Assembly: GCA_973895155.1 (NCBI GenBank)
Contig: OZ316894.1
Span: forward strand, 16,236,699-16,300,698
Direction: 5' to 3'
DNA length: 64,000 bases
Source of the DNA: Marsupella aquatica
Lineage: Eukaryota > Plantae > Marchantiophyta
The notes beneath the pieces are model-generated. The model saw only the letters and a list, made by a program, of their open reading frames with translations. It searched no databases and had not been told where the DNA came from. A program made the translations under genes and the position numbers. Below are positions 19,401-64,000 of this stretch, in pieces; the stretch's first letter is position 1; every line of letters starts with the position of its first letter.

Positions 19401-19932
19401 CCGAGTGAGACAGGTCACATGGTTGACTGGATTGAGAGTTATGACGATGCCGTGCCTCCAGCCAGAACAGAATGGCTCTAATAATACCACGCAGACCTTT
19501 CTGACCCCCACCAAGCCTCTGGATGCCTTCCACTAAGACACTCTCTTTGATCTTGGTAGCTCTAAGTTGAGCATACAGTTGCGCTGTCGCGCACGAACCC
19601 TTCCGTTGTGCAGCCTCCTCTGTTGTTAGGTCCGACGTGTATCCTGGGGAGCCTGATTCATCAACAAGGCCTCTACTGTGGCTCCCCCCGATCTCTACAT
19701 TACTGCCGTCTGCACCACCACTTCCCGACGAAGTACCGATAGAGTCTCGTCCAACAGCAGTACCAACAGAACCGGAGTGAAGAAAACTACTTCCTGCAGA
19801 AATATCCATGGGCTCATCGCGAAGCCACGTACAAACATCTGCCTCAGCAGGAGAACTGCGCTGCTGGTGCAGTCTGCTGAACTGGTTGTGATAATTGCTA
19901 CCTTTTACGTCGGTGGAGCTAGACATGGCCAT
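16437..19932 (-). CDS. ABI3: ABI3/VP1-like B3-domain transcription factor (LAV family), 6 coding exons; start may lie further upstream
   Basis: Exons 19932-18223, 18080-17976, 17840-17740, 17603-17557, 17116-17040, 16838-16437 all have GT-AG introns and splice in frame (~813 aa). B1-like LRATKIKESVLVEGIQRLGGGQKGLRGIIRAILFWL; B2 STRLARKQRMDRNR; B3 [32 protein letters not shown]...[31 protein letters not shown]. The 101/47/77-nt B3 exons fit the usual ABI3 layout. The frame stays open upstream to ~20240, and the stop overlaps a GTAAGT, so both ends are uncertain. Confidence 0.93.
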
Positions 19933-22120
19933 CAAGCCGTGGTTGGAGGCGTCTCGAGGAAGAGGAGAAGGAGAGGAAGATTCGGGCGGCTTCGCAGCGT
20001 AAGTGCCCCTACTACTCTCATCTACCACCACCTTCCTTTTGAGACCACGGCCCGGACTGGACGACGAGTGACGCCAAACATGGCCGTCATTCAATGCACT
20101 GCCGAAGTGGTGCTGCCCAATTGTATTGTGCCGTTCAAGAAGCGGGGCTCGGGACGAGCAGCAGCAACCTGCGTTGACTCCATCCCACAATAATCTCAGA
20201 ACAGTGAATGAAGTGACGGCCTGCCTGTAACTCCTAGATTACGTGCAGCAGCAAGGGTGGGTGCAATCATGCGACAGCCTCTGCCTTCGTCTTCCCCCCG
20301 ACTTGTGAGACACACAGAACATCAAGAACGAACACACAAATACTCTATGCGAGGAAGAAGTAGGTTACCACTACAGCAGTATACCATCATCCTCCTTCTG
20401 ACAAACAGTGAATAGCGAGAACCAGAGCTCTCTCTCTCACACACGATATCACCGTCACTTCTCCAAAACTTTCGTCAGAGCAATCTTTCTCTCTCTCTTT
20501 TCTCTCTCTCGCTCTTAATGTATACTCAAATTCTGTTCGAAGGACGGCAGGAGGCCACGGTAGTACTGAATCGGCCACACCAGACCACACCAGACCTGAC
20601 AGACAGTACTGAACTCTTCCTCCGACTCCGCCAAGTACGGGAAACAAGCCGAAATGCGCAACCAAGCCGACCTTCTATTGCCAAATGATCTAAACTCACC
20701 TCTCGAGGCAATTTCATCCCGGCAGCCTCCCTCACCGATTTGTAGAATGCGCTGCGCACATAGAAACCTCTTCGAACGAGTTCCCCTCACATTCTAGAAT
20801 GCTCTTGGCTCATAGAAAGAAACCTCTTCGAATCCTCAAAGCACCTCAACGAACCCCGGCTCTATACAAAAGCACTCTGGCCTAACGCATCGAGGAACCC
20901 AAACGATAAAAGTTCAATGGCCACGTCCACACCACCTATACGTAGCGATCCCAACACCCGCAACTCCTATCTACCAGCTCCTGTTGCCCGACGATGATGT
21001 GGAAAAGAGAGCTCCAGGAAATGGCCGTGCTGAGAATGATGAGGAGACGAGAGCTCCAGAAAAAGCCTTCAGCCTCCATTTCTCCGTCGGGCCGAAGTCG
21101 AAGAGGGCCGACAAAGACGAGGCTACAGCCGTAGCGTTGGTCCTAGTGGATGGTCACTGACCAGAGCTGATTGAAGAATCCGGCCCACCTCCCACCTGGC
21201 GATCACTCATTGGCCGGACCCCTCGTCGCTTACATGAAAAGTTGTCCCGCCCACCAACACGGCTTTACCTTTTCGCTGTTACCGTGCAAATATCCTAATA
21301 AGGCATCTTCCTCAAGCAAAACGGCCTACTTTCCGTAAAATAGTCTCTACACATAGGGAGTGACGATTACACTCAGTTAGGGGTGAAGCTTCCATCAGGC
21401 CCCCGGGCGCTCTTTCTTGGCGTTTCGAACTTATGCAAGCTTGGTAGCATCCAGCTGTTCGATTGCACTACGTGGTAGCTTCATCTTAGGATGGATGAAG
21501 TTGATGCTAGGATGAACTAACACATTTGACTCAAAGACTATATGGACCAAGCTGTTTTTTACACCTGTAAGTGTCAGTTTTCATACAACGAATAAATGTT
21601 GTTTGAGTAGCAACAATGTTTCAAGATGATCCTTGCAAGATTTGGTAACCCCTGTAAATTACCATCCTGTCAAACATGACTATCTCTGTATGGGAGCTTA
21701 TGCTTCTTTTAGCTGTTCACTTTGAGGCTTTCTGCCGTTGGCCAGCTTGGTCCCCCATCCATGGGGTTCACTCAGAATAAAATAATAAATTCCAAAAAAG
21801 AAGAAAAAAAACTATTCACTTTCAAATTTGGGAAGGTGTGCATATATCTGATCCTCCATAGATTAGTCCTGACAAGGCCAAAAGAAAAAGGGGTCGTGAT
21901 AACTGCACATCAAAATATGGCATCTAATGTGTAGACATCCTTCATATCATGATAAACTTTATTATTTTCTTAAAATCAATGAGTGCACAATATATATTAT
22001 CACAATTTGATATGTGATTACTGGCAAGGGTGGAAAATAGCTTTCATTTGTTAAATTTTGAAGGACATAATCTGTTGCATTTACTTGTATCTCAACATAT
22101 GGATGGGTTCACCTGCAATT

Positions 22121-44057: not shown

Positions 44058-45024
44058 AGTGGTATCAGAGCATGCCTGGGAGGTAACGAGGTTTTTTTGT
44101 GATGGGTTTTTTCCAGCGTTCAGTGTCGATGGTACATTTGGAGTTTTGTCGCATGAAACTCGAATGTGTGTGGCTGAGCAGATAGGTTAGTGAGAGGGCT
44201 TTCTAACGGTGGTTAGAACTCGCTGATCGGTATCCGTGGTGCGGAGGAATCAATGTTTGCATCATTCAAGGTTTATTCGTGTTCGACGGTATTTCAGGGG
44301 AGAGATCAAAGTTTGCTTTTTTTTCAACGGTGTGAGCTGTGTGGTGCGGGAGGGATCGCACATTATAGCTCAACTTGAAGGCTAAAGCGCGCTGGTCATT
44401 TCGGTAGCTGGATTGCTGCCGAGTTATTACCGAGTGCGATGTGACGAGTGAAGGAGGCGTTCAGGTTTTTTCACAAGCTATGGAGCTTGTTCTCATCTGA
44501 ACTGGGTTTCTCTTCGTGACGTCCGACTTGGTGGAAGAAACGCAAAGTGCTACGGCTCAACGGGTGATCGCGGTGAGGCGGTCATTTTGAGCCCGGGATT
44601 GGCACTTGATGTGGAGTGAAGACGACGCGGCGGAATTTGTTTACTCTGCTGGAGCTATAGACTGTGCCGGTGAAATTCGGCAACATTTACCATCGGCGGC
44701 GTTCATTTTTCTCATTGGAAACGGCGGCGGTTAAGTATTGGACTCCTAGCTTCGTGGGCTACGCGGCGGTGTTGAGTTTTGAGTTTTATGAGAAGTTTCA
44801 AAAAAAGACATTTTTTGTGATTGTTTCATAGGAGTGACTCGGAGGATACTAGAAGAATTGGCGTCGGTGGAGCTTCAGGATCACAATGGTCAGACGGAGA
44901 GTCTGAGGAGGAGTTGCTACCATTTGAGGAGGAACTAGTAACACCGGTAGGATCACCGGTGCGGTGTGCAGTGGAGGAAGCTGTCATGCTACCAGAGTTT
45001 TTGGTAGTTGGGAAGAAGAGAGAG

Positions 45025-45570
45025 ATGGCTAGATTTGGAGGAGTGAAGTTTGAGGTGGAGAAGTACGATGGTTGTACTGATTACTTGCTCTGGGAGAAGC
45101 AAGTGAAAGGTGTCCTTCGGGCCATGGGCTTAGCTCATCTGCTCTCTTTGCGAGAGCAGTATGATGGAGAAGAGGAGATCTCAGAGAAGCAGTGGAGACA
45201 GAAGCAGGTGATTGTTGTTAATGCAGTGATGCTTTATCTAAAGCCGCACATCATCAAGCAGCTGGATGATTATGCGGATTGCGCGTCACTGTTCAAGGCT
45301 CTAAGAGAGAAGTACTACCGGGAAGATGCGTCAGACTGGCTGTACAAGAAGTCTCTGTTGATGAGCCTCAGGCTCAAGGAAGGGAGCAAGATGCAGGATC
45401 ACCTGGATGAGTTTGACAGTCTAGCGGTGGATCTGTCAAACTTGGGGAAAATTTTAGATCTACATCATCTGGGAGATCTAAATCCAGAGGGAAATTGCAA
45501 GAGAGGAAGCCTCTTGCATGTTGGAATTGTGGCAAGCCTGGCCACATGAAAAGGGATTGTTGAGTAAAGG
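45025..45570 (+). pseudogene. Copia gag remnant
   Basis: KFEVEKYDGCTDYLLW...LRLKEGSKMQDHLDEFDSL (UBN2-type gag), then a frameshifted zinc knuckle CWNCGKPGHMKRDC ending at the gypsy junction. Confidence 0.85.
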
Positions 45571-48500
45571 TCATGTTGGTCCTTACGCAATAATGCGTTG
45601 GCTGCCGTGTTTGTCTTCCCAGGAACGTGGCGGACTTCAAAATTGAGATCCGCCAAGAACATTTGTCAACGCATTTCCTTGGGGTTTAGCCTTGGCTTAG
45701 AACTGAAGTACCCGGCCAGCGAGCTATCTGTGTGGATTACCACTTTGGGACCGTTCTTAAGGTAAATCTCCCACTTCTTCAACGCATAGATCACAACATA
45801 TATTTTCCTTTCCGGCGTGATCCAATGATTTTCCAACTTACATGACTCAAAGGCCACAGGACGCCCATCTTGGTGAAGACAGGCGCCAATGGCATAATCA
45901 CTTGCATCTGTCCAAATCTTGAACGGCTTCCCCATCTCAGGTAACTTTAGAACCGGCGGCGTTATCATTAATCGATTAAGTTCTAAGAATGCTAACTCGC
46001 AATCCTGTATCCACACAAACACTTTGTTTTTCAACGTTAGCGCATTTAGGGGCCTTGCAATCCTCGCATAGTCTTTCATGTATCTCCGATAGAACCCCAT
46101 AAATCCTAAGAAGGCTCTAACCTGCCTTACATTGGACGGGCGCTCCCATTCTTTGATCTCCTTAAGCTTGTCCTGACTAGGCGTAATCCCTTCCGGGGTA
46201 AAGGTATGGCCGAGGAACTAAATCTCATTCATCGCAAACTCGCACTTGCTTGGTTTAGCAAAGAGACGAGCCTTACGAAGGCGAGAGAACACTTCTCTGA
46301 GCAACTGCTCATGTTCCTCCAACGTTTTCGAGTAGATTAGGATGTCGTCAATAAAGACAACAACCCTTGGTCCAACAAGTCATGAAAGATGGTATTCATC
46401 ATCTTCATGAATGTTGCGGTTGCATTACACAACCCGAACGGCATAACTCATAGGATCCGAACCTTGTGCGCATCGCGGTCTTATACTCATCTCCCTTAGC
46501 CATGCAGATCTGGTAATACCTAGACCGCAAATCCACCTTTGAAAATGTCTTAGCCCCGGAGAGGCAATCGAAGAGGTCATCCATATGAGGTAACGGGTAC
46601 TTGTTCTTTATTGTTTGCTTATTGAGCGCCCGGTAATCTACACACAATCTCAAAGTACCATCCTTTTTGGACACAAACTGCGCGGGCGCCCCGTAAGGAC
46701 TCTTACTAGGGCGAATGAACCCTTGGTCGATCAACTCTTCCAAGGCGTTCTTCAACATCATTCGCTCATTCAGGTTCAGATGATAAGGAGCTTTAGCCTG
46801 AGGAGACGAACCTGGCTCCAACTCAACTTGGTGATCCACTTCTCTCCGCGGGGGTAAACCTTTAGGTAGCTTTTGCGAGAGCACGTCGTTGAATTCCTCT
46901 AAAATTTCAGGAATTCGACCGCAATCGGGCCCGAGCTTAGCTGACTTGACCTTTGGCTGCGACGCAGCCTCCTTAGTTGGGTGGAGATGAAAGAAGAAAC
47001 ATTCATGTCCACCCTTTAAGTCTTTCCACCATTGTTTCGCCGATACACACGGAGACAACCACGACACTTTACTTACTTTGAGAAATCTTTCTTTATTTTT
47101 GGTAACTTCGTGTACAACGATGGGCTCACCGCCCTTATTGGGAAAATGGAGCACCTCACCCCCCGGTTTCAAGGTAACATTGTGCTTTCTGAGATAACCT
47201 ACCGACAAAATGAAGTCTATGGCTAGACCGTCTAGAACGTAGAACATCGTCTGACTAACAAAATTTTGTTGCTCGCCTATGACCTCTACTCGAAGTCTAT
47301 GTACCACTCTCGATACTATCCCCTTTGTGTCGTTGGCAAACTTGCACACTAACGGTTGTAGCAACTCTTGCACGTCCACCCCAAGACGTGCTGCCACCCG
47401 CCCACTTATGAAGCAGGCGGTCACGCCTGTATCCACCAACGCAACACCCAGGCTACCGTTAGAAGTGATATTCACAAAAATCAGTTTTTCAGGATCCATT
47501 GTCTTAACCTTAGGTATCTTCTCTTGCAACAACACCCTCTCTCGGGTAGGAACATCCCCTACAGGGACTTTGTCAGCTACTAAGGGTTTGGTTAGAGCAA
47601 TACTTACCTTAATTCTCTTCTGCCCTCCACCATCTCCGCTCGGCTTGCCACCTTTCATGGAACAATCCTTACTTTGATGGCCCATGGCACCACATGTGAA
47701 GCACAAACCTTCAGCCCACCTCTGCTCCATGGTTGCCTGCTTCTTTGCTTTCTGTGCCGATGAGGCTCCTTTCTTGAAGTTGTCGGCCTTCCAGTTTTGC
47801 TTAGCTTCTGCATTCTGGGGCTGAGGATCCGAACCACCGGCCCCTGCCCCCTCGGGTTGCTTACGCTTATTCTTGAAACCTTTTGTTTTCCCAGCTTTCC
47901 CCTTGGATCCCTTGCCACCCACCTTCGCCAAGTCCGGTTGGTTATTCACCAACGTAGTGGCCTTGTCGAAGGCGTCAGAAAGCATTTTGAACTCATGATG
48001 CTTTTCCTACAACTTTTCCCTGAGCAACGGCGGGAGCTTCACGATAAAGTTGTGAAGCTGTGTATGCAGGGTCTCTTGTCCCGTCGGGATACACGCCAAC
48101 TGATTCTGGTAATAAGTGATGAACTTTTGGATATCACCCCTGAAGCTCATCTCCGTTACACATTTCTGAGCGTGCCGCTCCGGCTACTTAGTGGTGACAT
48201 GAGCACGGAGACCCTCAACCAGGTTTTCCCAAGTTAACAGTAAGGAGGAGTCCTCTCGCGACTTCTTCCATGACTTGTACCAAGTCAAGGCATAGTCCTT
48301 CAGGTAAGGAGCGGCTGCGATAGCCCAAGTGGAACGCTCAACGCACGCTTGGAGATGAATCTCTATCGTGGAGAGCCAACTCAGGAACTTTTGTCCACTT
48401 TGTTCGTAGGCCCCGTCGTAAGTTGGAGGAGTCGGTAGCTGGTTCACTTGGAACATACTCCGTCCAACTACCATTCCCCCCTCGGGATGCGTCGCACTCT

Positions 48501-49000
48501 GACTACCTAGACTAAGTAAGTACTTAATCTGGGCCCCCTTGTTGTGTTCCAACTGCTCATAGATGAGTCATTGGTCATGAGTCAACGGACCCAGACCGTC
48601 GTCAGCGCCGGGACCTTGCGGGTTGTATGAGGACGGTCCTCCAACCGTCTTTCCTTTGTGGGCCGCCTATCCTTAGGTTCTCTTGTGGATTTTGGTGATA
48701 CCCCCGCGTCTTGCGAGCACCATGACCTCCCGGGACTGAGGTATCACCCGCGTCATCCTGGTTCTGTTTGGTCAAATTATCCACGATGACGTCTGGCTTG
48801 ACATCATCCTCTGGTTCCGCATTCAACCCTCTCAAGGCTGGGATCAGTTCCTCCTCTTGGTCCTGCCCTGCTTCCTCTATTTTGGCTTCAGCCTCATCGT
48901 CGCTTCCTTCTGCATCGGAGTTGATCAACCACCTCCTTCCCTTTAAGTCGGCGGCACTCTGCACTTGACGTGTTTGCCGCAATGGTCGATGGTTCGGCCG
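45571..49000 (-). pseudogene. Gypsy gag-pol (gag, aspartic protease, RT, RNase H), degenerate
   Basis: ORF fragments 48602-48982, 48184-48552, 46405-47985, 45666-46100 and 45465-45662 in gypsy domain order. Confidence 0.9.
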
Positions 49001-49281
49001 TTGCGTCTTCTTTGTCCTGCTTGTAACGTTCGTCTAGGGAAGTCGACCCGTCCTTCTTCTATTCATCTTGAACTTGGGCTCTCCCCTTGGTGGGGGGAGC
49101 CTGTTTGCCACTCTTTGAACGAGTGTTTTTAGCCATGTTCCCAGCGACCAAATCTGCCCGCAGTCGACCCGTCGGGCACGTTGAAGCACTAAGTTCCCGC
49201 AAAAATCTGTTAAGATTTTTGGATTCCGACTTAGCACAACTTTGGCCCGGTGTCTATGCCAGCAATTGCTTTGATACCACA

Positions 49282-50724
49282 AGTGGTGGACCTTACCACC
49301 CAGCTCCCTCACCAATCCCAGCACTCACGCCTAAGTGCCCTTGGTGCCCGAACGCCTCCACGGAATACCTCAAGCAAGCAACCTAGTGCCCCTTGCACCG
49401 CCAGCGGCCCCTCCCATACCAAGCCTCACTTGCTCTCTAACACGACCGCTACTCAACGGTCCTCCCTTTCTGCACAAGCAACCAAGCACCTTGGTTAAGT
49501 GACCCTTCAGGATCTAGAACTCGGCAAGTCTAGCATCCTAACTCAAGCTCAACAGACGTTGGTAAATAGGTCAGCGATAGGTCCTCCGGATGCCATAAGC
49601 CGGAACCAGAGCCTGTGCCCACTGTCCGTCCAGGACAACTCCTTCCTTGGGTGCGGCCCGGGTTCCCCCTTGTACCTATCCATCACCAACTGACCGCCCT
49701 GACCTCAGACATGCTCATGGCCCAACTAGCGTAGCCTGTCCTAAAGCTTGTCCCAACAAGCCGGGACCAGAACGGCCCCGACTCTAGCAGTCGCTCCCGG
49801 TTTGCCCCACCAATGGTCTAGGGGCCGATCACCCTTGGAACTCATCCTCCACACCTACTTGGCCTTGCCTCCCCAATGCAAGCTCCCTTGGGAGACTGAA
49901 CGTGGCTTGGCTACTGTTCGGCAGGATTTGGCAAGCGAGCAAGCTAATACCCGTAAACCACGAGAACCCATGGCACCTCTAGACCCATCTGAGCCCAGGA
50001 AGTCCTCCAACGGACTTCCCGTTGGGAAGATATCGCCATTTCCATTTGGTGGTTTCCCTTAGTGTCGCGACCGCCGCGGCTCACGACTTCAGCTCGCCCT
50101 TAGCCCCCAGGGAGACACCACTCCCCTCATATATGCTTCTGGAGACCTGCCACCCCCGGACCAGCTTTGGTCCCTAAACATTTGGCCCCCAACCCGGATC
50201 CTATCGCGCATAATGGGCGCGCCACCAACTGGCAACGCCCATAACTTTCTCGTTAGGCATCCGCCAGCGGAGTGCCTTAGCCCGTTGTGACCGGGCCGAT
50301 CCACTGCTCATGCCTAGGCCCTCAGGTCTCATTGTTGCTTGGGGCCCCCGATCGGCCTAACCCGGATCGGGCCGTAACTTGCGCCCCAAGCGTCCGTTGC
50401 CCATGGCGTCAACTCCATTGGGCTTGGGCCCAAGAGGAGCTCACACTCAAGCCCTTAGAACTCAAAGTCCATCCGGAGGTCCGAACAGCCCTCCTTGAGC
50501 CCGGCCCATTTCGCCTTGACCCGACCAGCTATCAGTTAGTCCAAGTCCTTAGTGTGTGTCCCCAGCTCGGCTCCTTGCCTCGCTAGTGCCACGGCTCATT
50601 GCCCACAAGTCTCCCCGTGCTAAGTCCTCCCTGGATGGCCTATCCGGGCCTGGACCATAAGGGAGCTTGGCGTCAGAGTCAGTGACGCCGGAGCTAAGTG
50701 TTAAGGTAGTCGAGTTCCGCGACT
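49282..50724 (-). repeat. Gypsy 5' LTR (~1.44 kb) with AGT...ACT ends
   Basis: On the - strand it begins AGTCGCGGAACTCGACTACC and ends GGTCCACCACT, 2 nt before the PBS. Homologous to 6940-8404. Confidence 0.9.
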
Positions 50725-51106
50725 AAGATGTATCAATTGGAAATCTACCTTGCAGAAGTGCATATTTCAGTCTACTACAAAAGCAGAGTATGTTGCAGTA
50801 GCAGAAGCAGCAAAGGAAGCAATTTGGTTGGACAAGTTGATCGCGGAGATGGGTTTAGAGCATGGCAAAATTACTCTAAACTATGATAGTCAGAGTGCTC
50901 TTCACTTGGCTGCTAACCAGATGATGGATAGCAGGGTAAAGCACATTGATATCAGGTACCATTTTATCAGGCAAGCAGTGTCTGATAAAACTTTTGAGCT
51001 AGTCAAGATTGATGGAAAGCTCAATCCCGCTGATGCCTTTACCAAAGTGATTCCTTTGGAGCGTTTCTCAAGACACCGTGCTACTTTGCAGGTTTTGGAG
51101 TTGTAA
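50725..51106 (+). pseudogene. Copia RNase H remnant
   Basis: INWKSTLQ...STTKAEYVAVAEAAKEAIWL...YDSQSALHLAAN...RVKHIDIRYHFIR...NPADAFTK. Confidence 0.92.
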
Positions 51107-51661: not shown

Positions 51662-52793
51662 AATGGAGTGTTTTAACACAAATGAGTGGTTTAATGAGGA
51701 AACTCAACCTCTTACACATTTGAAACCAAAATGCACAATTAACAAAAGACAAGGAAATATAATTCTCCTTCATAGACTATAACTCTAGGACTTTTAAAAT
51801 CAGGCTTTAGCACTGCACTACCTCCATCACCATAGCTTATGGAAGGATATGGCCACTTTAAGATGTTAAAAGGTACACAAAACCCCTCTCTGATTGCTTC
51901 CCAAATTTATACTCCCATTTCTCTTCCTTCTAGTATTACACTAGAAGAATCCGAGGTGAACTGAGACCGCAATATGTGACTCATTTTGGCTCATGTGACT
52001 TCATTGTGACTCAACGTGACTTGACCCACGCTGTGACCCTTGGAGTTGCAAAAGTTGAGACCAAAAAATGGTAGTCACTATTGATACTGGGCTTTGCAAC
52101 TTGCTTGATACCCATTTGTGACTGATCTGTGACTTTATTGTGGAGTCTAGCCTTGTTTCGACGTGACTGCAATATGACTTCAGCGAGTCACATCGTAAGT
52201 CACATGCATGACTTACCCGCATTCAACAACGACTAGTGTGTGACCATTTAGTGTCACAGGAGAGACCAATGGAGACCCTGGCCCGCGTCACACAACAGAA
52301 CCATTTGGGACTCTATATACTCATGTTTATAACTAATAAGGTTCACATGCAAGTTATAACCATGACTAATGAACACAGAGGGACAGTTCATAAGGAGAGA
52401 GAGCACTCGACATTACAATACATAGAAACCTGATGTTCTAACTTTAGAAATATAACACATTCAATACAAGAAATGAACATAGCATGAATGACATCCACAT
52501 GAAACAAAGCATCATATAAGCAGATCCTACATAAAACATTCATAAGAATTAAACACAATCACAATCTTGCTAAAAAATGAAGATCATTTGAATTCCAATG
52601 GAATAGTTTACAATGTGATCAATGTAATTCAGACAAAACAGGAACTCATAATTGATGACTGCAGGATGAGATAACTGAAAGCACATGCATGATACTATGA
52701 ATCTCCAAGAGGACATGATTCTTGTACTGCTTCTTGACATCTAAAATCTACATAACATGACTCACACTACAAACAAATAATGACATGACATTG

Positions 52794-55700
52794 TTATGGA
52801 TCCTCTATGAACTTGCTTGGCCATAATACCAAAGAACCTGCAGCATCTCCAAGTGTCTTTTGAGGAGGATCATCATTTGTGTTTGGAATGGGAAGGACAG
52901 CTTTAGGTTTCACTAGTAATGTGACTAACACTACTGAATAACCTGGGGGAATCCTCTTGCCATGGAACGTTGTGGAACCAACCTGCACTCTGCCAAATCC
53001 TACTCGTGTTCCACTCTCATCAAGAGCTAACAAGCCACTTTGTCCCTCAGCATTAGGTGCTTTCCCCACTTCCACCTTAGATCTTTCTGCCAGCACCGTT
53101 CTTGGAGGTTTGTATGAAACCTTTGACGTGGCTCTGCTCCCACCAGCAGACTTGCTTCGTGTGCGCATGCTTCCTCTCTTCACAGTAGTGAAGCTAGGCT
53201 CAGTAGGTTCCTCTATTAGGACTGTCATAGTAGCAGGTTGATCACCTGGGAGTGTCATACCAACTAACTCTTTGGTTGGATTTATCTCAACAAGAGGCAC
53301 ACCTGTCATTGAGAATGATACATTCTGCAAATCATTTATCTCTGCAATGGAGTCAAGATCTACATAGCATGAATCTGGCTCAATGGTATCATTGTCATGC
53401 TTGCTGATATCCTCATTTGCCCCAACATTGATATCATCCACTCCCTTGCCAATGTCATCCTCATCCAAACATGGTTGACTGCCCTCTGTCAAACAAGTTG
53501 CTTGTACAGACTGCAACTTTGTTGCCTCTAAATTACAGCGAGTATTTGCCAGGTTCTCATACTTCTTCTCTGTAGCACCTGTCTTATTCTCTATGGACAC
53601 ATCAACCACAATATATGTTACTGAAAATAACACATTCGACAAACAATGTCAATTCAAACTATACATTTAATAATCATATCCCACACAGTTGTAAAGGCCT
53701 TACCTTCAAGCCTACATGTCGTTGGCATGCCAGAAGAGTGCATCGACTTTGCCACCTCAAGTGGTGATGGTGGAACTCCTGCAGAATTGGAATCAATTTT
53801 ATCTCTCACCGACACAACAGCTTCCATTAATGTCTTGAAGTTCACATGGAACAAGTCAGTCAATGAATTCAAACGTTCATTGATCTCTGGAAGACATGTT
53901 TCGACAGCCTTCAAACGACCACTTATCTCTGTAAGTGAAGATCCACCTCCCTACATGACACAGGGGTATAGGTTCAATCACTCCATATGAAATGTTGGGC
54001 AATATATGCACAATCAATGTTATATACAGTGTACACCTGAAATTCAACGCAGGTCATTCAATTACCAATCAGAACTCATATAACTTACATGCTTGGAGGA
54101 TTCAGATGCACCCTCTTGAGCCCGGGTGTTCACAATTTCAGCCCTCAACTCTTCTTTTGAAGGGCTTTGCCCCAATTGGGCTTTCTGCACATGCATGGCA
54201 AACACAAGTTATCGATCAATATTCAGGGAACGTACACTAAAAAACAAAGTTTACATGTATGGGTTTACACTAAAAAACAGTACATAGTGTAGCATAAATT
54301 ACATAGCTAGGCCATTCATTCTTACCAAACGTTTAGCTGTCGGTGCAGTGCCGGTCCTTCCTATCAGATTAGGGTTCTGAACACTCAACCTGGCCTCGGT
54401 CATCTGTGAACTCTTCTTTTTTGAAGCATCTGTTACAAAATAAGCTACTAACCTTGCCCACACTTTATCATCACAACTGGCTGGTGGAGGCATATCTGGC
54501 TTCTCCCCACCTTCCTTCCAAGCCTTATGCATTCTCCACCTCTCTTGCTTGATGATTTTACCTGCTGTACTCTCTAGGCAACCTATGTCCACGCCATCAT
54601 CACTGCCCACATAATTCCATTTGGCAGCAACATTTTCACATACAGTCTTCCAATCTTTTGGATGTTGTTTTTTAAAATTAATAACACTCACATCTAACCA
54701 ACGCAATACTTTAGCTTTCAAATCAGCATGCCATCGGTTCTTGCGAGGACACTCAGCATCCACCCATTGTCTCTCATTCAACTTTACGTTCCCTTTCTTT
54801 GTCACCTCCCCTCGTGCACTGCTCTCGGTAGTACTGGGCGTTGTATTGGCCACCCCTTCATTCACCCTACCTGGGGTTCTGAAGCCACCTGGGAAAATAC
54901 AATGCCATTCATGCTTGAGAACTACATATAGCAGAATGGATGACGGCAACATTCAATGCTTCACTTCAAGAAAAATTCTTCAAACATACATACCTGTAGC
55001 TCTGACTGCACTCTGAAATTGTTGCGACCCTGGACCACCTGTCCAGCCTAGTACAGGGGCCGGATGATGTCACTTTCTAGGTATGTGTGTGCAAACATAT
55101 GTACTGAAAACTAAGTACAAACTGTAGGAAAACAACTGAACATTCACCAACATACCTGTCCCCCTTCCGTGCTGCATCTGCATAGGGGCATTAGTGAATA
55201 CTTGAGTCGATGGTTCGACTGTCCAACCTGCACACATACATTTTCTATCATTATACATGTGCAGAGTCCCCCCCACGTGAATGGACTCCAGATATAATGA
55301 GTTCTTCCATTGTTGACAAGATCAGACATTACCTGCCCCTCTTCCAGCGTTTGTAGGTACTGAATTTTGATATCCCTGCCAATTACCTTCACCACCTTCC
55401 CAACCTTGTTCATTCCACGACCCACCACCATCCTCCCAACCTGGTTCAACCCATGTCTGTCCTTGTGGACATTGGAACTGATCATTACTAGCATTTGCCC
55501 AATCAGGTTGGGCAGAATCTGCATGCAATGGCAGGTGGACAGAATTTCATGTTGTCTGAATCCAATACATCCCAAACAATGTCAAAAATTGATATGCAGT
55601 CTGAAATTCAGGAGTGCCATGCCTTCACAAAGAACTGGCATATAGATATATACTCACATCCCCATGGTTGAGGTGGACGTCCATACCCACGAGATTGTGG

Positions 55701-56479
55701 GTTTGGACCTGCTCTGCCTCTACCACGGGCATAACCTAGAGCTTGCCCCCTGCCATAGTATTGGGCACCAGCCTGGGATCTACCACTACTACCACCTCGC
55801 CAACCTTGATCAGAGGTCAGCCCCCCCTGCTGGTATGGTGCATGCACAGGCTTCGAAGGCAAAACAGAACTGGCAGGACGCTGCATCACATCACCAACTA
55901 CAATGTCAGGAACTAAGCAAGGTACATATGTGTAGTACTGAACATATGAAACCTCTAAACAAGAGTTTTTAACTCAAAACCTTGTTGGGAAAACTACTTA
56001 CCTGTTTCTTTTGGGGCTGCTCTGCAATGTATTCATCTTCATAACCCCCATCCTCATCCATTTCCTCTGGAAAATACTCATCATCTGCATCTTCTTGTCT
56101 AGTGTCTGCACCCACCTGTGCAGCATCAATGTCATCTCCACATTTTGCCATTGTAGGTACGACCTTCTTGCTCAACCTGTCACTCCGACGCACAGGCCCA
56201 GAGATAGTGCTGGTCACCCTTCTTGCGTACTCCTTTTGTTTCTTTGAAAATGCTGTGGCTCTGCGACATTCCAATATGAGAATACAGTCACAATTTCAGT
56301 GCCACATTGAACTATTCATGTCACACAAACTCAGCGGAGGGGTGTAGTTGAGAATCGTTCCCTTACAATTCAGCCACATCCTTTTCCAGATCCAGTTCTG
56401 CGATTTTGGCTTTCACGTATGCTCGTTGTTCCATAGCTTTCCTTTCATACTCACACATCTCTGTGTCACTCTGTTCCAT
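52794..56479 (-). CDS. CACTA TnpA-like accessory protein (Ptta/En/Spm-type domain plus C-terminal Tnp1-like domain) with N-terminal GW/RG-rich region; 10 exons, apparently intact
   Basis: Predicted exons 56479-56367, 56260-56002, 55880-55658, 55518-55333, 55227-55156, 55047-54994, 54888-54326, 54184-54089, 53950-53704, 53620-52794; all GT-AG, 2640 nt in frame (~879 aa). Contains PPASCDDKVWARLVAYF...KKSSQMTEAR...GRTG and HGKRIPPGYSVVLV...LPIP...TLGDAAGSLVLWP, typical of CACTA second ORFs. Confidence 0.8.
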
Positions 56480-56635
56480 CCTACTGGACCACAAAAACAT
56501 GTCATCTACGATCACCCCGTATAACACAATGCAACCACAATCACCAGGCATCCATCCATACATCTGTGTTGCTTCAGAATTACTTTATTACACATCCTTC
56601 CCCTCACTAATGTCCATGCAAACAATTCACATTAC

Positions 56636-59600
56636 TCATGGCACAGGCACACTGTTGGCATCTGCATCTCTGAATTCGCCTCCTTCAGCAAATGCATCTA
56701 CCCTTGTCACAGGAATGAAGTCCCCGCTATCATGAACTACAGGCACTTGGTCTGAACGCCGACGATCAAAGGCACTATGAGAGTGTAAATGAAACTCAAG
56801 GTTTGATCCTTCCATCCGACGTTGCCTGGCCTGTTTATGACACACTACACGCCAACCTGGGGAGTCTTCCACATCCAGGAAGAAAGCTTGCTCCACCTGA
56901 CTAGGAAACACAAATGGCTCAGACCATTCGGGCAATTTCCCTCTGAAATTGGCCAGCAAGAAACCGTCGTTGTCTCTCTTCATGGTAGCCCTGTTACCAA
57001 GCCAATCCTGCCGCACCCATGAACCTTTCATAAGAATCACAGGACTGGACACCGCCCCATAGTCCAGAGCCCATATGTCAACTAATTCTCCCACATATCC
57101 CATCTCCATCCAGGCCCTGTCGTGATTGTGGCTCTGTTGCTCAAATACAGTGATGAACCCGCAGTCATTCGTCACCCTGTAGGCACTGTCACCATCCTTC
57201 ACTCGAAAGTGATTCCCATATGCTCTCATCCGTTTGTAAGTCTTCACTTTCAGGCTAGGGGCATTAGACAGTAGGTAAACATCTGCATCCATGTCTGGGT
57301 GGGTCTCGTGATGCTCTCTAATTGCCACTCTGATCCACTCCATGAAACCTGGAAAAGTTGTTCCTGCAGTGGGATGGGCCGCCTTCAATGACTCATACTC
57401 CCTGAACGAACAACCACACAGCATTAGCTTGGGTAAACATGAACAGGCTGAAGGAGAAAACCACACGAACACAACATTTAAGCTCATGAACTGGATTATA
57501 GCACATGTATGCACTCACTGTATCCAGGGTTCCATCACCACAGTGTTGTGCAATACAAAGTCATGTGCCAAGTCTCTCATAGATATGGTCAGGTTCTTTG
57601 TGGTTGCAGCCCCTTCCAGTACTTCACCTATCACCCCTTCCTCCTCATCAGAATTCCACACCCTGGTCTTCACATGCTCATATTGTGCTATGTATTCGGT
57701 CAGAAATCCTAGAGTCTCATCCTTGATGTAACCTTTAGCCATGCTTGCTTCAGGTTTGTAATATGTTCTCACGTGACCTTTGAGTAGCTTCATGTACCGT
57801 TCCAAAGGGTACAACCAACGAGCACTCACAGGCCCAAATTGGTGTAGCTCTTCCACAACATGGACAAGTAGGTGGGTCATGACATCAAAAAATGCGGGAG
57901 GAAAATAAATCTCCAGGTCACACAGCACCTGAGCGACATCTTCTGTCAGTTGTGGGAAGTGTGTTTCATCCCAAACCTTCACACAAATACGACGAAACAC
58001 ATCACTGAGTCGCATGATCACAGTACGAACAGGCTTCTGCAACAGGCCCCTCAGGCATAAAGGCAACACCTGTTGCATCAACATATGGTAGTCATGGCTT
58101 TTCATACTACCAAGCTTTCTAGTCATGATATGCTTCTTGAAAGCACTGCCATAGTTTGAAGGAACCTTCAAAGAACTCAACCTCTGCACAAATAGTTCCC
58201 ACTCTGTGTCTGTCAGAACATAGGGCGCTTGGTACTTCAAGAGCACATCAGCTCTGTGGGCATGTGGCCTCAACCAAAGATGGGGTTTCATTCCCCTCTG
58301 TTCAAGATCCAATCTCACTGAACCAGTGTCTTTCTCTCCACACAAGAATCTGAGTAGACTCTCACAAATATTCTTTTCAATGTGCATAACATCAATGTTA
58401 TGTTTGCTTGGCTCAAACTCCTGCATCGTTGCAATGCAAAAGCGTCAGGAAATGCCTCAAGTTTAGTCTCTCTCTTCGAAATGAATGCACATGCTCTGAA
58501 CCAAAACATGTATCCCAATTAGCATCAACTCCAAGAGGCTTACCCTCCAGTACTTGAGCTCCAAGTCCAATATGCTCAGTCTTTTTACACCATATCGCTT
58601 TATTGGATCACTCACTCCATCTTCCCTGCCCCCTCGTTTGATATAGTCATCCCTCAGTGCTCCCCACTGCCTGATCTCCTCTTTGGTCACTCGTGCCGGG
58701 GGTCCACGTTGCTCAATCTCATTGCCAAAGTGTGCAATCAGTGCCTGTCTTTCTCTGTAAGGGTGATCTGCCTTCAGAAAACGACGATGGCCCATGTATA
58801 TCACTTTCTGCAGGGCTCTGGAGTACTCACTCGTGACATTGCGCCCACAGATAGTACAAGCACAATATCCTTTTGTTGTTTGGCCTGATATCATCCCATG
58901 GGCTGGGTAGTCAGCTATAGTCAAAATGACAATGGCTCTAAGGATGAATGGGTTTAACCTCCCAAGCCTCTGTAGGACATCATATGTGAGAACTCCTTCC
59001 TCCCAAAGCTTTCTCAATTCCTCCACTAGGGGAGCCAGAAACACATCTATGTTGGCAGATACAGCACTGTCTGGCCCTGGTATCAGTAGGACCATCAGAA
59101 CAAAAAATTGCTTTGTAGTCATCCAAGGAGGAAGGTTATAATTCAAAATAGTTACAGGCCAACACGAAAATTTGTTGTTCTTGTCTCCAAATGGGTTTAC
59201 CCCATCCAATGACAGCCCAAGTCTGACATTCCTCGGCTCAGCAGCAAATTCGGGATACATCTCATCTATGAGTTTCCATTGCCTTGAATCTGCAGCATGT
59301 CGTTGTAGCCCATCATCACTTTTCTTGTCAGTTGCCCAAGTCATCATCTCTGAGATGGCACGGCTTCTGAACATCCGCTGAATTCTGGGAATGAGTGGAA
59401 AATGACGAAGTACCTTGGCGGGAACCATAGACTTTCCTGAGTTCCGATACCTGTGCTTCCCACACTTAGGGCATGTCAACGATTCTTTATACTCCTTTCT
59501 GAAAAGAACATGCCCATCAGGACAGGCATGGATCGAATCATAGTTCAATCCAAGATTAGATATGCATCTTTTTGCCTCGTACATGTTCTTGGGCAAAATA

Positions 59601-60367
59601 TTACCATCTGGTAGCACAGTTGTTTGCAAGAATGCCAACAACTCAGAAACCAAAACGTTGGGGACATTGTGGTTGCCGCAAATGTTCAGGAACATGATGA
59701 CAAATCCCAGTTTAGAACATTTGCTACCGGGGTACAAAGACTTCCTGCCTTCCTGTATTTGCAGGGGAGAGCCAAACATCCCATCATGCCCAGGGGTTTC
59801 CTGCCCTATCTCAAACTCATCAAGAGGCTCTTCAACAGGGGGCACACTTGCATCTGCAGCCGTATCCTCTTCGTTGTCCAGCCCATCATGAAATGCATCC
59901 AAGTCTTGGAAGATGTCTCTCACCATCTCTTCCACATGAATTCCTTCGTCACGTGGTGCTGCCTGAGCACCATCCCGTTGGAGAGCTGACAACCCATAGA
60001 GACCAGCTACAACATTTTCAAATGCACCAGGCAGAACCTCACTTGCCCGTCTTGCAGCATTGGCAGCATCAAATTCTAACCTCCACTCCTCGTCGGAAGA
60101 ATCTTCCTCTGCAGGATCATTCCAAACTCGATGTTGTGGATCTCTTCCATGAACCGCGATATGCCGCCAAACCTCATTCAAACCCCTGGTACGGGATCCT
60201 TGGCAGATTGCACAAGGACATCTCATCCTACTGGCTCCTGAAAGTCTGGTTCGTAACCTTTCACGCTGCCAAAGCTTATTATCATGGCGTGATATCCTTG
60301 TGGGATGATGCAAAGGCAGTGCCTGTGCCCTGGGCTGGGTTTGGGGAGGGTGGTGACCAGGGTGCAT
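56636..60367 (-). CDS. CACTA TnpD-like transposase (transposase-associated Zn domain, Transposase_21, DUF4218/DUF4216-like), 3 exons, apparently intact
   Basis: Exons 60367-58544, 58420-57519, 57401-56636 join in frame (~1163 aa). Motifs CPCAIC, IHACPDGHVLF, HAADSRQWK, EPRNVRLGLSLDGVNPF, NYNLPPW, DYPA, HNIDVMHIEKNICES, MKSHDYH, FPPAFFDVMTHL, WLYPLERYMKLLK, EPFVFPSQVEQAFF. Confidence 0.93.
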
Positions 60368-60899
60368 TGTAACAGGCTGGAAGCTCTGCAGTCATGGACA
60401 GCAGTGAACAGGGATGCCTAATGGTGGTATTTGTGTTCCATATATCCCTGACTGTATGTGCCAAAAGAGTTAACATAACGTGTAATAAATTCTCACAAAC
60501 CCTAAACCACCCCAAAAGAAAAAAACAGGTTTGCGAGTAGTGTACCTATTGTCAAATGAATGACACAAAATTCCTCAATGTTTGAGGGTGTCACCACCTC
60601 CACAGCTGTCCTCAAATGTACCGCCTCTGCATGTACACCCATGACCATATCAGAGTCCAATCATGTATAGTCATAGGCATAGGTGTGAGAGCGGTATCAG
60701 ATATCTCACCGCCGAGATTTGAGCCCACCCAGTACGTTTACAGTGACACCCCCAGGCAGCAGGAAACAACAATCCGCCAACAGTAAAATAAGCCCAACTG
60801 CCACCAACCATAACAAGGTACATTAGTTCAAAGATCACATTTATTTCAATGATCTGATTTATACAAAAAAACTTGTGTCCAAACTGATGCTACTACTCC

Positions 60900-61772
60900 T
60901 CACTCTGATTCAGAATCGCTAATGACCCATTCCTCACTTGTTGTCTCATAGTCCTCTCTGTAAGGATCCTGACCCTTCCGTGGCCAGGCCTCAAAAAGAT
61001 CATAGTCCATTGGGTTTTGACACTTCCCAGCTGCTACTAATTCCACAAGCCAAGCATATGAAACCACAAACACATTATGGGACATGACATAAAAGCGAAT
61101 GTCTCCCTTCCCAAACTTGCGGCAGGCTTTGGGATATGACTTAGTAATGACATGAGTGGTGTCCTCTGTTATATTCTCCTCAACTGTCCCACCTAGGTCA
61201 AGCACCGTGGACTTGTACACTTTGCACTTAACCTCTCCAATTCCCGCCTCCACAAACACCATGCTCAGCCCTTTCAGAATGGGGGTTGGTTGCTTCGTCT
61301 CCTCAGCCAACATACTCTTCAGCCTTCTAGAGCTCTGTCCTTTGTTGAGTACAGGTCCATATTGGACATCAGCAAGCCGTGCCTTTGCTTCCCAGACTTC
61401 TTGTTCAGCCCAAGCTGATGCAGTAGCTTCTTCATCCTCCCACAGCTCATATTGCTCAGTATCCTGTACAATCTGATGTGCCATGGAATCTGTGATCCAA
61501 GAGGCCTCAACTACTTTTAGGCCTTGCTTAGTAATTGCAGAATTCATGTAGGACCATGACCACTTCTTTATCACTGATAGCCATGTCCCTGCAACAACAT
61601 GTGTAGTCTCTAGAGTGATGTCCTGAACTACAGTGCCATGGAGCTCAGAGAATCGTTTCTGTACAGTTGGTCAATGCACTTTGGTCAACCCATGCTGGCC
61701 ATGGACCAAAATGGCTCTGACCCCTGTAAACACTGCTGGGTGGTCACACTTTCTACGTTTCCCAGGCTCCAT
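60900..61772 (-). pseudogene. Tandem-BRCT protein gene (BRCTs resemble DNA polymerase lambda N-terminal BRCT) with one in-frame stop
   Basis: ATG at 61772: MEPGKRRKCDHPAVFTGVRAILVHG...KVH*PTVQKRFSELHGTVVQDITLETTHVVAG...VVEASWITDS (BRCT1). BRCT2 is LKGLSMVFVEAG...LGGTVEENITEDTTHVI...KFGK...VVSYAWLVELVAAG. A single TGA lies at 61673-61671; the frame is otherwise continuous with ORF 60900..61574. Confidence 0.75.
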
Positions 61773-62364
61773 GTACACACACCCTACGTGATGACAGTGA
61801 ATTTTGGAAGAATGGGTTCACCTGACAATACAAGGACAACAAAATTCCTGCTTTTTGAGTTGATCTGGCCCACTGGTGCTCAGGTCCGATTTTGATAGGT
61901 ACAAGGGATATGTGAACAATACATACTAGGCACCTGCACGGATGCAGGACATTGTTTGAATATATACTACAAAATCCATATCGAAGGTGAAATGAAGTGC
62001 AACCAACTTGTCATGGCACATACATATTTTGTTGTAAAGGAGGATACATTCAATGACAAACTTATAGGGCAATTTGATTAATCGCATGCCTGATAATTTA
62101 TACGCTTACAACTTAGAAGTCCTGTTTTAATTTAGCAGTCTGATGAAAGTGTTTATGAAAATGACCACTCAGCCTAAATACTTCCAAGAAGGCTTGTAAG
62201 GATAAGTTTTTATAGGCATGTACCCAGCCACTGACGCCAGAGCACAAGATAAGTGCTGCCTATATAAACTCGCCTACCCAAGTCCTTTTCAAAATTGGAA
62301 TCTCTGCAATCTCAAAAAATAGTACATCCACATCAGGTGCACTGTGCATGTACAATGTTCAGCT

Positions 62365-63045
62365 TCACAGCCAAGATATGTGATCTCTCACAGGAGTGCG
62401 CGAGGTAGGATCAATGGCATGGCGATGACAATAAAATATCCATCGATCAACACCATGTGCAGAGTGATCATAGATTTCTCTATCACAAGCATAACCCTCT
62501 GCTTGACGATCTTTCAGGCAATGATAGTGCCACATGGTGGGACACCTAGCACAGTGGACTATGTCAGTCCAGTACTCATGATCATGCTCACCACATGCCT
62601 TGCACCTATGAAGTGGGCAAGTTGTGGCATGAGTAGGCAAACACTCAAAACAGAAAAATCTCACACAAAAACGGTCTGGACATTTCCTAACATTTGCTGC
62701 AACATCAACAGAGCCCTCATAGGACCCCAACTTCCCACACTGTGCACACTTAGCCTGCTTCTCCAAACAATCAGTGCACATCCAGTCTCCCTGGTGTGTT
62801 GACGGGAGGCCCACCCCTGGACAGTTGTTTTCTGCAGCAAGGTCAGACTCCGGGTTGAGGTGGAAATGTCTCATGCAAGGGCCCTCACAAATGACCAGGC
62901 CCCCACCATCGTCACAAATGGCACAACAATGAGCTGCCTTCTGGAAAATCTGACTTGCAAAGAAGTTAGTAGCATCTGCCCCAAGTACACCTGTGTTTCT
63001 CACCTCTGTCACACGCTTTTTGGCTTGAATTTTAGGTCGTGCCAT
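62365..63045 (-). CDS. Stand-alone EDM2/NSD-type tandem PHD-finger protein (226 aa, intronless), probably CACTA cargo
   Basis: ATG at 63045. CAICDDGGGLVICEGPCMRHFH...C...WMCTDC...CAQCGKLGS...C...C...TCPLHRCKAC...CARCPTMWHYHCL...IFYCHRHAIDPTSRTPVRDHI follows the plant EDM2 PHD module as I recall it (CAICDNGG..CEG.C.RSFH...TCPLHKC...CRRCP..YH..CL...IYC..H.ID....TPVRDH). Confidence 0.8.
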   Translation of the reverse strand: MARPKIQAKKRVTEVRNTGVLGADATNFFASQIFQKAAHCCAICDDGGGLVICEGPCMRHFHLNPESDLAAENNCPGVGLPSTHQGDWMCTDCLEKQAKCAQCGKLGSYEGSVDVAANVRKCPDRFCVRFFCFECLPTHATTCPLHRCKACGEHDHEYWTDIVHCARCPTMWHYHCLKDRQAEGYACDREIYDHSAHGVDRWIFYCHRHAIDPTSRTPVRDHISWL

Positions 63046-63056
63046 GCCTGCGCATG

Positions 63057-63200
63057 AGATAGACTCTACAGTTTAGCAGACTGCACAGAAAGTAATATAT
63101 ATTTAGCATTTAAGGTACAAAGGCATTTAGATAGACTCTACAATTTAGCAGACTGCACAGAAAGTAAAATATATTTAGCATTTAAGGTACAAAGGCATTT
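63057..63200. repeat. 72-bp tandem duplication just upstream of the PHD ORF
   Basis: AGATAGACTCTACA...AAAGGCATTT x2 with 2 mismatches. Confidence 0.9.
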
Positions 63201-64000
63201 GCTACTGCAATGAATTGGAATGGCCACACAAGGATGCAGAGCAGACATACTTTTGGTATGTTGAGCCCACACACAAACCTGATCCCCTAATACAATTGCT
63301 CCACCAACACCTCAATTTTAATTGTGGCTATGATTCACCAAAGGAGATCTGCAACAACATTTCATGCATTTGAATCACATACAATAGTCGTGACATGTAA
63401 AACGCGCATTCTTCGAAGAGGATTGGTATGAAGCAGTGTCATAAGGGTTGAAATTTATACATCCTAAATAGGCTATGATAGTGGCTGAGACAAATAAGTG
63501 ATGCATAAATCACATTTTACAGGTTATCACATGGCCCATTAATTCATTGAACGTTGCAATGTTCACCAGGTTAAAGCAGTCATGAAAGCAGTCTTTCAAT
63601 AGAGACTTTTATGCGAGTTTGCTAGCCTCTTAAATTAGGATATTTTGCTTAGTGCAGGCATAATAGGATATAAGTTATGTACTGTTGACCCTAAACCCTG
63701 GACCCAAAATTGCTCATACATCAAAATTTTAAGTAAATATCCTCTGTGTTGAAGTCAGAGTGTTAAGCTATAGGTCAATGGTATCTGGTCTGTGCATGCG
63801 GTGTGACAAGTGGTCCTCTAGAGCATGTGATCCAAACATGTGTAGACACCAAAGTCACCGGTGGTGGGGTCTGGGAGGGCAGGACAAGTGACATCACCAG
63901 GCACACTGCAGGATGGCGAGTGGTTCCAGATGATACATTGTGCTCTGTGCAAAAATCGGCATCCAATTCTGGGCCAGAAGCCCTACAGGCAGGACAGTCA

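Follow-up and report, generated by a model that had tools for sequence, protein, structure and literature searches.

A predicted tryptophan- and glycine-rich repeat arm in the TnpA-like protein of a CACTA element from the liverwort Marsupella aquatica

The CACTA element and its TnpA-like gene

The stretch of DNA analysed here, hereafter the window, comprises 64,000 nucleotides (nt) of the liverwort Marsupella aquatica (contig OZ316894.1, positions 16,236,699 to 16,300,698 of assembly GCA_973895155.1), and the 12 kb at its 3′ end are a CACTA (En/Spm) element with its genes on the minus strand. The element encodes a TnpD transposase (Transposase_21, E 1.3e-70; DUF4218, E 4.6e-28; DUF4216, E 1.2e-4, the last below its cut-off) and, downstream of it, a second gene named ORF2 here, whose predicted product resembles the regulator TnpA. 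Exons 3-6 of ORF2 encode a predicted repeat arm rich in tryptophan (Trp) and glycine, located before the conserved domain of the protein, and it is this arm and its possible partners, Argonaute (AGO) proteins among them, that concern us.

The ORF2 model runs from 56500 to 52794 in ten exons (Table 1) and gives an open frame of 886 residues without an internal stop. All nine introns are GT-AG, 83-141 nt long, with a GC content of 0.31-0.43 against 0.43-0.57 in the exons, and those around exons 3-6 are uniform in length (104-139 nt) and likewise lower in GC. The exons from which the original prediction had built a Trp-rich segment of a TnpA-like protein are thus borne out as far as DNA sequence and gene model can show. 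By a crude home-made score, four donors of this part of the model rank 1, 2, 5, and 8 of 92 GT sites and the five acceptors rank 1, 3, 8, 11, and 34 of 79, the last being that of exon 6; within exon 4, a donor that the model leaves unused comes third of the 92. Each of exons 4, 5, and 6 can also be read through in a second frame, and a 145-codon open frame extends across 55144-55581; however, the second frame meets a stop within the first few codons of exon 7, so only the frame with the GW dipeptides reaches the conserved domain. Farther downstream, the annotated Calypogeia protein P0123 aligns over the junctions after exons 7 and 8 (model residues 323-585, E 3.7e-48). Among 67 relatives of the protein there is no separate significant match to exons 3-6, though a few of their domain alignments reach into the region; exon 4 shows no similarity to P0123 (best E 4.2) and only four chance matches to PDB sequences (E 5.9-6.3). 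Since no relative independently matches these exons, their splicing is predicted from the DNA. Six sequencing runs were listed with matches, none of them of RNA; in the matches listed, the contigs show no joint where the model places introns, which has no bearing on splicing.

Table 1. Features of the CACTA element in the window (positions are those of the window)
Feature	Position	Strand	Remarks
ORF2 exon 1 (predicted; start codon tentative)	56367..56500	-	by eye loosely like the N-termini of Riccia P0140 and P0142
ORF2 exon 2 (predicted)	56002..56260	-	acidic stretch
ORF2 exon 3 (predicted)	55658..55880	-	rich in G, Q, Y, and RG; one GW and one WG; G7 run with recurrent -1 allele at 55820/55821
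ORF2 exon 4 (predicted)	55333..55518	-	six Trp in 61 residues; 36-nt (12-residue) tandem repeat; two GW; most hook-like core
ORF2 exon 5 (predicted)	55156..55227	-	72 nt, phase 1-1; GW created at 5′ junction
ORF2 exon 6 (predicted)	54994..55047	-	54 nt, phase 1-1; GW at 5′ junction; acceptor weak; 21-nt in-frame insertion in other copies
ORF2 exon 7	54326..54888	-	conserved helical domain, likely DNA-binding, continuing into PF03004 (Transposase_24)
ORF2 exon 8	54089..54184	-	matches to annotated Calypogeia P0123 and P0136 span its junction
ORF2 exon 9	53704..53950	-	likely coiled-coil
ORF2 exon 10	52794..53620	-	disordered stretch and C-terminal domain like UniRef-named DUF8039 proteins
TnpD transposase gene	56636..60391	-	three stop-to-stop open reading frames (ORFs): Transposase_21, DUF4218, DUF4216
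Element end downstream of ORF2	51939..52300	+	CACTA terminus (51939) followed by the subterminal GTCACA cluster
Tandem-BRCT ORF	60900..61670	-	BRCT, E 1.6e-12, two stretches; upstream of TnpD
NSD-type PHD-finger ORF	62365..63072	-	three weak PHD matches, all below cut-off; upstream of TnpD

The assignment of ORF2 to the TnpA-like proteins is supported by the relationship of exon 7 to PF03004, by the 67 relatives, and by a C-terminus that resembles those of DUF8039-named proteins. Exon 7 alone matches PF03004 at E 7e-4, with a score of 20.2 that lies below the cut-off of 28.7, and its structure is predicted as a confident helical model (pLDDT 85). When the model was compared with known folds, in view of the tandem tri-helical HTH domain expected of TnpA-like proteins, GARP/Myb, homeodomain, and BEN domains came up with a Z of only about 4 and an unrelated protein gave the best Z (5.1); its Atlas neighbours are unnamed streptophyte clusters at 0.93-0.94, with a cluster that is 32% PF03004 at 0.89. 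A search for homologues of exon 7 among longer or similar-length proteins returned no match, and no related loci were found in viral, metagenome, and genome contigs when exon 7, its alignment, and the TnpD alignment were used as queries. The C-terminus is 43-48% identical to the C-termini of P0136, P0160, and P0163, of which P0163 is named DUF8039 in UniRef (E 1.7e-12, 48%); the Pfam scan of this domain gave no match and its best Atlas value is only 0.76.

Composition and growth of the arm

The original prediction of about 180 residues rich in glycine, glutamine, and tryptophan, with six GW/WG dipeptides and RG repeats, describes the region well: residues 132-309 (178 residues, exons 3-6) contain 35 G (20%), 22 Q (12%), 10 W, 7 Y, six GW/WG, and 14 RG/GR dipeptides. 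Tryptophan is confined to this region, as 10 of its 178 residues stand against none of 337 in the other presumed-disordered, author-chosen parts of ORF2 (Fisher p=2e-5). At the given composition, the pairing of W with G is unremarkable (six GW/WG, 3.9 expected, p=0.18), and a mild excess is seen for GW taken alone (5 vs 2.0, p=0.027).

In the gene model, joining exon 4 to 5 and exon 5 to 6, in phase 1 each time, creates two of the GW dipeptides, as had been claimed for the 72- and 54-nt exons. The junctions after exons 4, 5, and 6 all encode glycine (3/3), which is largely a by-product, because the AG|G splice consensus gives glycine at all three; TGG follows AGGY sites on the minus strand in 11 of 485 cases, so that the following TGG is the sole informative part of a junction GW. 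The suggestion of exon duplication was likewise upheld as likely. Exons 5 and 6 align with a score of 34.5, against 11.3 +/- 5.7 for shuffles (reached by one of 2000), the Trp residues in the tandem repeat of exon 4 are spaced 5-7 apart, a third and weaker copy of that repeat lies in exon 3, and the DNA context is related around all five GW codon pairs. These similarities suggest that the arm likely grew by duplicating a small GW-containing unit, partly inside exon 4 and partly through the copying of entire phase-1 exons. Decay of CpG (CGG to TGG) was considered as a source of the Trp codons. None of the 12 Arg codons in the region is CGG, but elsewhere only 2 of 38 are, and the other disordered parts are without Trp, so that this source is not favoured; it may have applied to the founding unit. 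A WGYSA pentapeptide across the exon 3/4 junction is common with Riccia P0184, and it was not counted as support.

To compare the region with Argonaute hooks, the dos score of Karlowski et al. was re-implemented from the available portion of that paper, with its published cut-off of 6.99 (PMC2910046). The untrimmed form of the score was used, which is our own reading of the method, because the fitted lower bound in the paper (-17.06) is about twice the 8.6 drop; P was taken from the fitted distribution given there, and our calculation reproduces the paper's value for WGRP1, an AGO4 binder that scored 10.83. Run in this way, the GW-domain predictor finds one domain in the joined model (residues 144-355, dos 18.0, P about 0.0012; trimmed best 38.5), whereas exon 4 alone fails with 3.4 (P 0.025), although none of the 285 seeds from six-frame translation of the window does better; the pass therefore depends on the splice model. 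Moreover, the predicted list in the accessible text of the paper also includes ordinary glycine-rich proteins, such as an oleosin and cupredoxins (PMC2910046), so that the pass is a lead only. The fractions of W (5.6% vs 6.3%) and G (19.7% vs 21.3%) are close to those of the reference hooks, while the region has an excess of Q (12 vs 4%), of P (9 vs 3%), and of Y (4 vs 0.4%) and is low in N, S, D, and K. The mean score per residue is 0.08 over the region, and residues 207-270 reach 0.56, compared with 0.57 for the reference.

Bryophyte relatives, element copies, and surroundings

The 67 relatives come from an exon 7 search of 1.84 billion representatives. Names were found for seven of the ten that were looked up, belonging to the liverworts Calypogeia and Riccia and the moss Ceratodon, two being named DUF8039; the PF03004 cut-off is passed by P0123 and P0140. 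According to the available text of two recent TnpA papers (one of them bioRxiv 10.64898/2026.08.24.746577), TnpA-like domains are confined to flowering plants, a restriction at odds with the PF03004-positive or DUF8039-named TnpA-like proteins in Calypogeia, Riccia, and Ceratodon (P0123, P0136, P0140, P0163, P0181).

At least 60 residues precede the domain in 23 of the 67 relatives (2838 residues, 44 W), and in these 23 proteins the arms are without GW enrichment (8 GW/WG vs 6.9 shuffled, p=0.40). They are often rich in P, Q, and G, with Trp in W-[VIM]-x?-P motifs, of which there are 11 in seven proteins (P0146, P0154, P0159, P0161, P0169, P0170, P0179) against 0.9 when shuffled, the pattern having been chosen post hoc; the ORF2 model has one, in exon 4 (55453-55440). 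This motif is a candidate for a family-wide partner-binding motif. Calypogeia P0123 has the same order as the model, namely an acidic stretch, a basic patch, G/aromatic repeats, and the conserved domain, and its arm carries G/Y/F/H repeats in place of Trp (26 Y+F and 4 W in 248 residues). From this comparison, which is incomplete, an aromatic low-complexity arm looks like a trait of the family, and the GW-rich form like one specific to the lineage of the Marsupella element.

Contigs matching 52000-64000 number hundreds to thousands, come from four sequencing runs, range in identity from >99% to <90%, and cover 30 of 30 bins, which points to a multi-copy family; their depth over the element is not a measure of copy number. 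Variation was compiled over 54900-55960, from the best 40 of 74 substitutions and from ten indel entries. Among these 40, 25 lie outside exons, six are synonymous, and nine change an amino acid, mostly conservatively. As exons make up 535 of the 1061 bases, the 15 exonic substitutions represent a weak deficit (p=0.069). None of the 15 gains a stop, and none hits a Trp codon in these close copies, although the chance of missing all 30 Trp bases is 42%, so that this evidence for conservation is uninformative. The synonymous share (6/15) does not clearly exceed the 23% that are synonymous among all possible changes; in exons 4-6, four of eight listed variants are synonymous in the GW frame, vs one and two of eight in the other frames.

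Six of the ten indels are intronic, all non-triplet. In exon 6 a 21-nt in-frame insertion was seen in runs X5 and X6, with loose ends hinting at it in X1-X3, and exon 4 has a 5-nt insertion in one low-depth contig. The remaining two entries in exon 3 are single-base losses at its G7 run, found in runs X1, X2, X3, and X5 (depth 11335/105852 in X3 and 50.7/127.8 in X5); the resulting -1 allele puts a stop directly after the run in the modelled frame, and may reflect either defective subfamilies or an alternative use of exon 3. Losses at this G7 run (55820-55827) occur in four runs, and those at a C7 run in the next-but-one intron in one run only. Taken together, the variants lean towards coding in the GW frame, with weak constraint among copies.

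Next to the CACTA terminus, 11 GTCACA words fall within 360 bp, 37 times the window background, and by analogy this subterminal cluster likely represents predicted TnpA binding sites. A second CACTA terminus was not found within the window, and 63400-64000 holds no GTCACA-type cluster. The CpG ratio in the element is 0.18-0.44, compared with 0.74 for one host gene, so the element was probably a past target of methylation. Upstream of TnpD, the BRCT and PHD ORFs are probably inside the element, because contig coverage continues across both, and they are likely cargo or accessory genes. A 72-nt tandem duplication (97%) at 63057-63200 doubles a probable splice acceptor of the PHD ORF. Directly adjoining the CACTA end are pieces of long terminal repeat retrotransposons (44821-51106), apparently nested, with a copia-type gag on the plus strand and gag, protease, reverse transcriptase, and RNase H on the minus strand. 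A host gene on the minus strand at 16437-20238, which by eye resembles ABI3/VP1-type B3 transcription factors, gave no match in a Pfam scan of its stop-to-stop ORFs.

Interpretation and comparison with known systems

The explanation that we favour, with about even confidence, is that a DNA-binding TnpA-like regulator, acting against silencing, has in exons 3-6 a disordered arm that recruits partners by means of Trp; the partner would be something other than Argonaute, or the arm would self-associate. The observations behind it are the CACTA anatomy, the open exon model, the Trp enrichment, the internal repeats, and the aromatic arms at the same position in bryophyte relatives. Beyond these, we infer splicing of the exons according to the model, disorder in the arm, and TnpA-like action of the protein. 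Arabidopsis TnpA is reported to bind motifs clustered at the element termini, to activate and demethylate its family, and to need the host enzymes ROS1/DML2/DML3; disordered linkers and splice junctions lie on either side of the Spm DNA-binding domains (bioRxiv 10.64898/2026.08.24.746577). By analogy, the helical domain of exon 7 would bind the GTCACA repeats at the element end, and the adjacent Gly/Gln/Trp-rich arm would recruit host partners through its aromatic motifs, so that ORF2 protein, like Arabidopsis and maize TnpA, may activate and demethylate its own family via host factors. As partner one may think of a general co-activator, of a factor acting in chromatin or demethylation, or of further copies of the arm, rather than of Argonaute specifically, and the duplication of a small GW-containing unit would have given the arm its hook-like composition.

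Several points weigh against this explanation. Foldseek gave no match for exon 7 at E<=0.001 and no clear fold match emerged. The best dos among the 29 of 67 relatives with GW/WG is -9.7, vs 18.0 for the ORF2 region; since ORF2 is far more hook-like than its relatives and its exon 4 core matches the reference in mean score per residue, a specific gain of AGO binding is possible. Many of the relatives look like single-exon calls on short contigs, with arms perhaps incomplete, and the recurrence of the -1 allele in four runs makes the case for constraint weaker.

The original prediction had described the region as an Argonaute-hook-like decoy or modulator of silencing. A true hook would mean that end-bound TnpA captures or competes for proteins of the AGO4 clade, shielding the family from RNA-directed DNA methylation or tuning its own silencing, possibly as a local decoy against the hooks of RNA polymerase V and SPT6L; we consider it possible, as a serious but less likely rival. 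The dos of the joined exons, above that of WGRP1, the W and G fractions, the five GW in related DNA context, the Trp spacing within the exon 4 repeat, and the CpG depletion of a probable methylation target all agree with it. Furthermore, the hooks of NRPE1 also consist of rapidly changing repeats, and all land plant groups tested, a liverwort included, have AGO4 orthologs as well as an NRPE1 rich in WG/GW (PMC4476159). However, the score hangs on predicted splicing and comes from a predictor that also returns glycine-rich proteins, the GW/WG count is within what composition predicts, and the variants are silent on Trp conservation. The description as hook-like thus holds for W/G composition and the dos pass, and gives way at the excess of Q, P, and Y, the relatives without GW enrichment, and the junction glycines that are partly a by-product of splicing.

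A wider version of the same idea, in which a bryophyte CACTA evolved, through duplication of small exons and of internal units, its own Argonaute hook fused to a sequence-specific DNA-binding domain, intercepting AGO4 at its own ends and forming a counter-silencing kit with the genes for histone-reading PHD fingers and BRCT domains, seems doubtful to us; if true, a hook-bearing CACTA would be the transposon counterpart of viral GW suppressors.

A linker under loose constraint is an improbable reading of the arm; its GW repeats would then stem from a duplicated unit with a chance Gly-Trp near a proto-splice site and would bind nothing specifically. The amino-acid changes in 9 of the 15 listed exonic variants, a synonymous share near that of possible changes, the recurrent frameshift alleles, the dissimilarity of exon 4 and P0123, and glycines that come with the splice consensus would fit such a linker; on the other side, Trp is confined to the region, the intronic indels are all non-triplet while that of exon 6 is in frame, and no stop gain is listed. 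Defective copies are expected in any CACTA family, which also weighs against the linker. Least of all do we expect the splice model to be partly wrong in exons 3-6 (skipping, other sites, or another frame) so as to leave a smaller GW platform, for although the second open frame, the weak exon 6 acceptor, the strong unused donor in exon 4, the lack of independently matching relatives, and a -1 allele that could signal different use of exon 3 speak for it, the second frame soon stops, the donors and the other four acceptors rank high, the introns are uniform and low in GC, and downstream junctions are matched by annotated proteins.

TnpA-type anti-silencing is only partly understood, and a defined arm of about 180 residues with ten Trp offers a testable candidate effector. 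Should the arm bind Argonaute, transposons would have a means of counter-defence for which the open-access literature searched has no description, namely an AGO decoy targeted to DNA; should it not, it would still mark the likely effector arm of a liverwort and moss TnpA family.

Among known systems, ORF2 is closest to TnpA of maize En/Spm and Arabidopsis Spm1/Spm3, with which it shares its position downstream of TnpD, a surrounding CACTA element with clustered subterminal motifs, the helical domain running into PF03004, the DUF8039-like C-terminus, and a predicted disordered linker with many introns before the DNA-binding domain. It differs in that its nearest named relatives are from bryophytes, its linker is a Trp/Gly repeat arm, and the element likely carries PHD and BRCT genes; in their available text, the two recent TnpA papers mention neither Argonaute nor tryptophan (one: bioRxiv 10.64898/2026.08.24.746577). 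With the WG/GW hooks of NRPE1, SPT5L/KTF1, SPT6L, WGRP1, GW182/TNRC6, and Tas3, the arm has in common its W/G fractions, short degenerate repeats, a dos above the cut-off, and attachment to a likely chromatin-bound protein. Unlike them, it is transposon-encoded and predicted only, has six GW/WG (10 in WGRP1, over 40 in SPT5L), and is rich in Q, P, Y, and RG and poor in N, S, D, and K. As with viral WG/GW suppressors such as SPMMV P1, to judge from the accessible text on that protein, a parasite-encoded GW mimic would act via Argonaute binding; TCV P38 is presumably another such silencing suppressor. Viral WG/GW suppressors are cytoplasmic proteins, whereas ORF2 protein would be tethered to DNA by its own predicted binding domain. 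VANC of VANDAL Mutator-like elements, as its abstracts describe it, is likewise transposon-encoded and counters silencing sequence-specifically in an arms race with RNA-directed DNA methylation, but belongs to another superfamily and is presented in those abstracts without an AGO-binding mechanism; no homology to it was found, no search aimed at it having been made. In the open-access literature searched, most subscription papers lying outside this scope, no title or abstract concerns a transposon-encoded Argonaute hook or a CACTA element bearing PHD or BRCT genes, and the accessible parts of PMC5391189 and PMC10991848 treat host hooks only. Compared with all of these, what is new is a real, if predicted, Trp/Gly repeat arm on a bryophyte-type TnpA, an arm that might, from its sequence, bind the host silencing machinery in the manner of an Argonaute hook.

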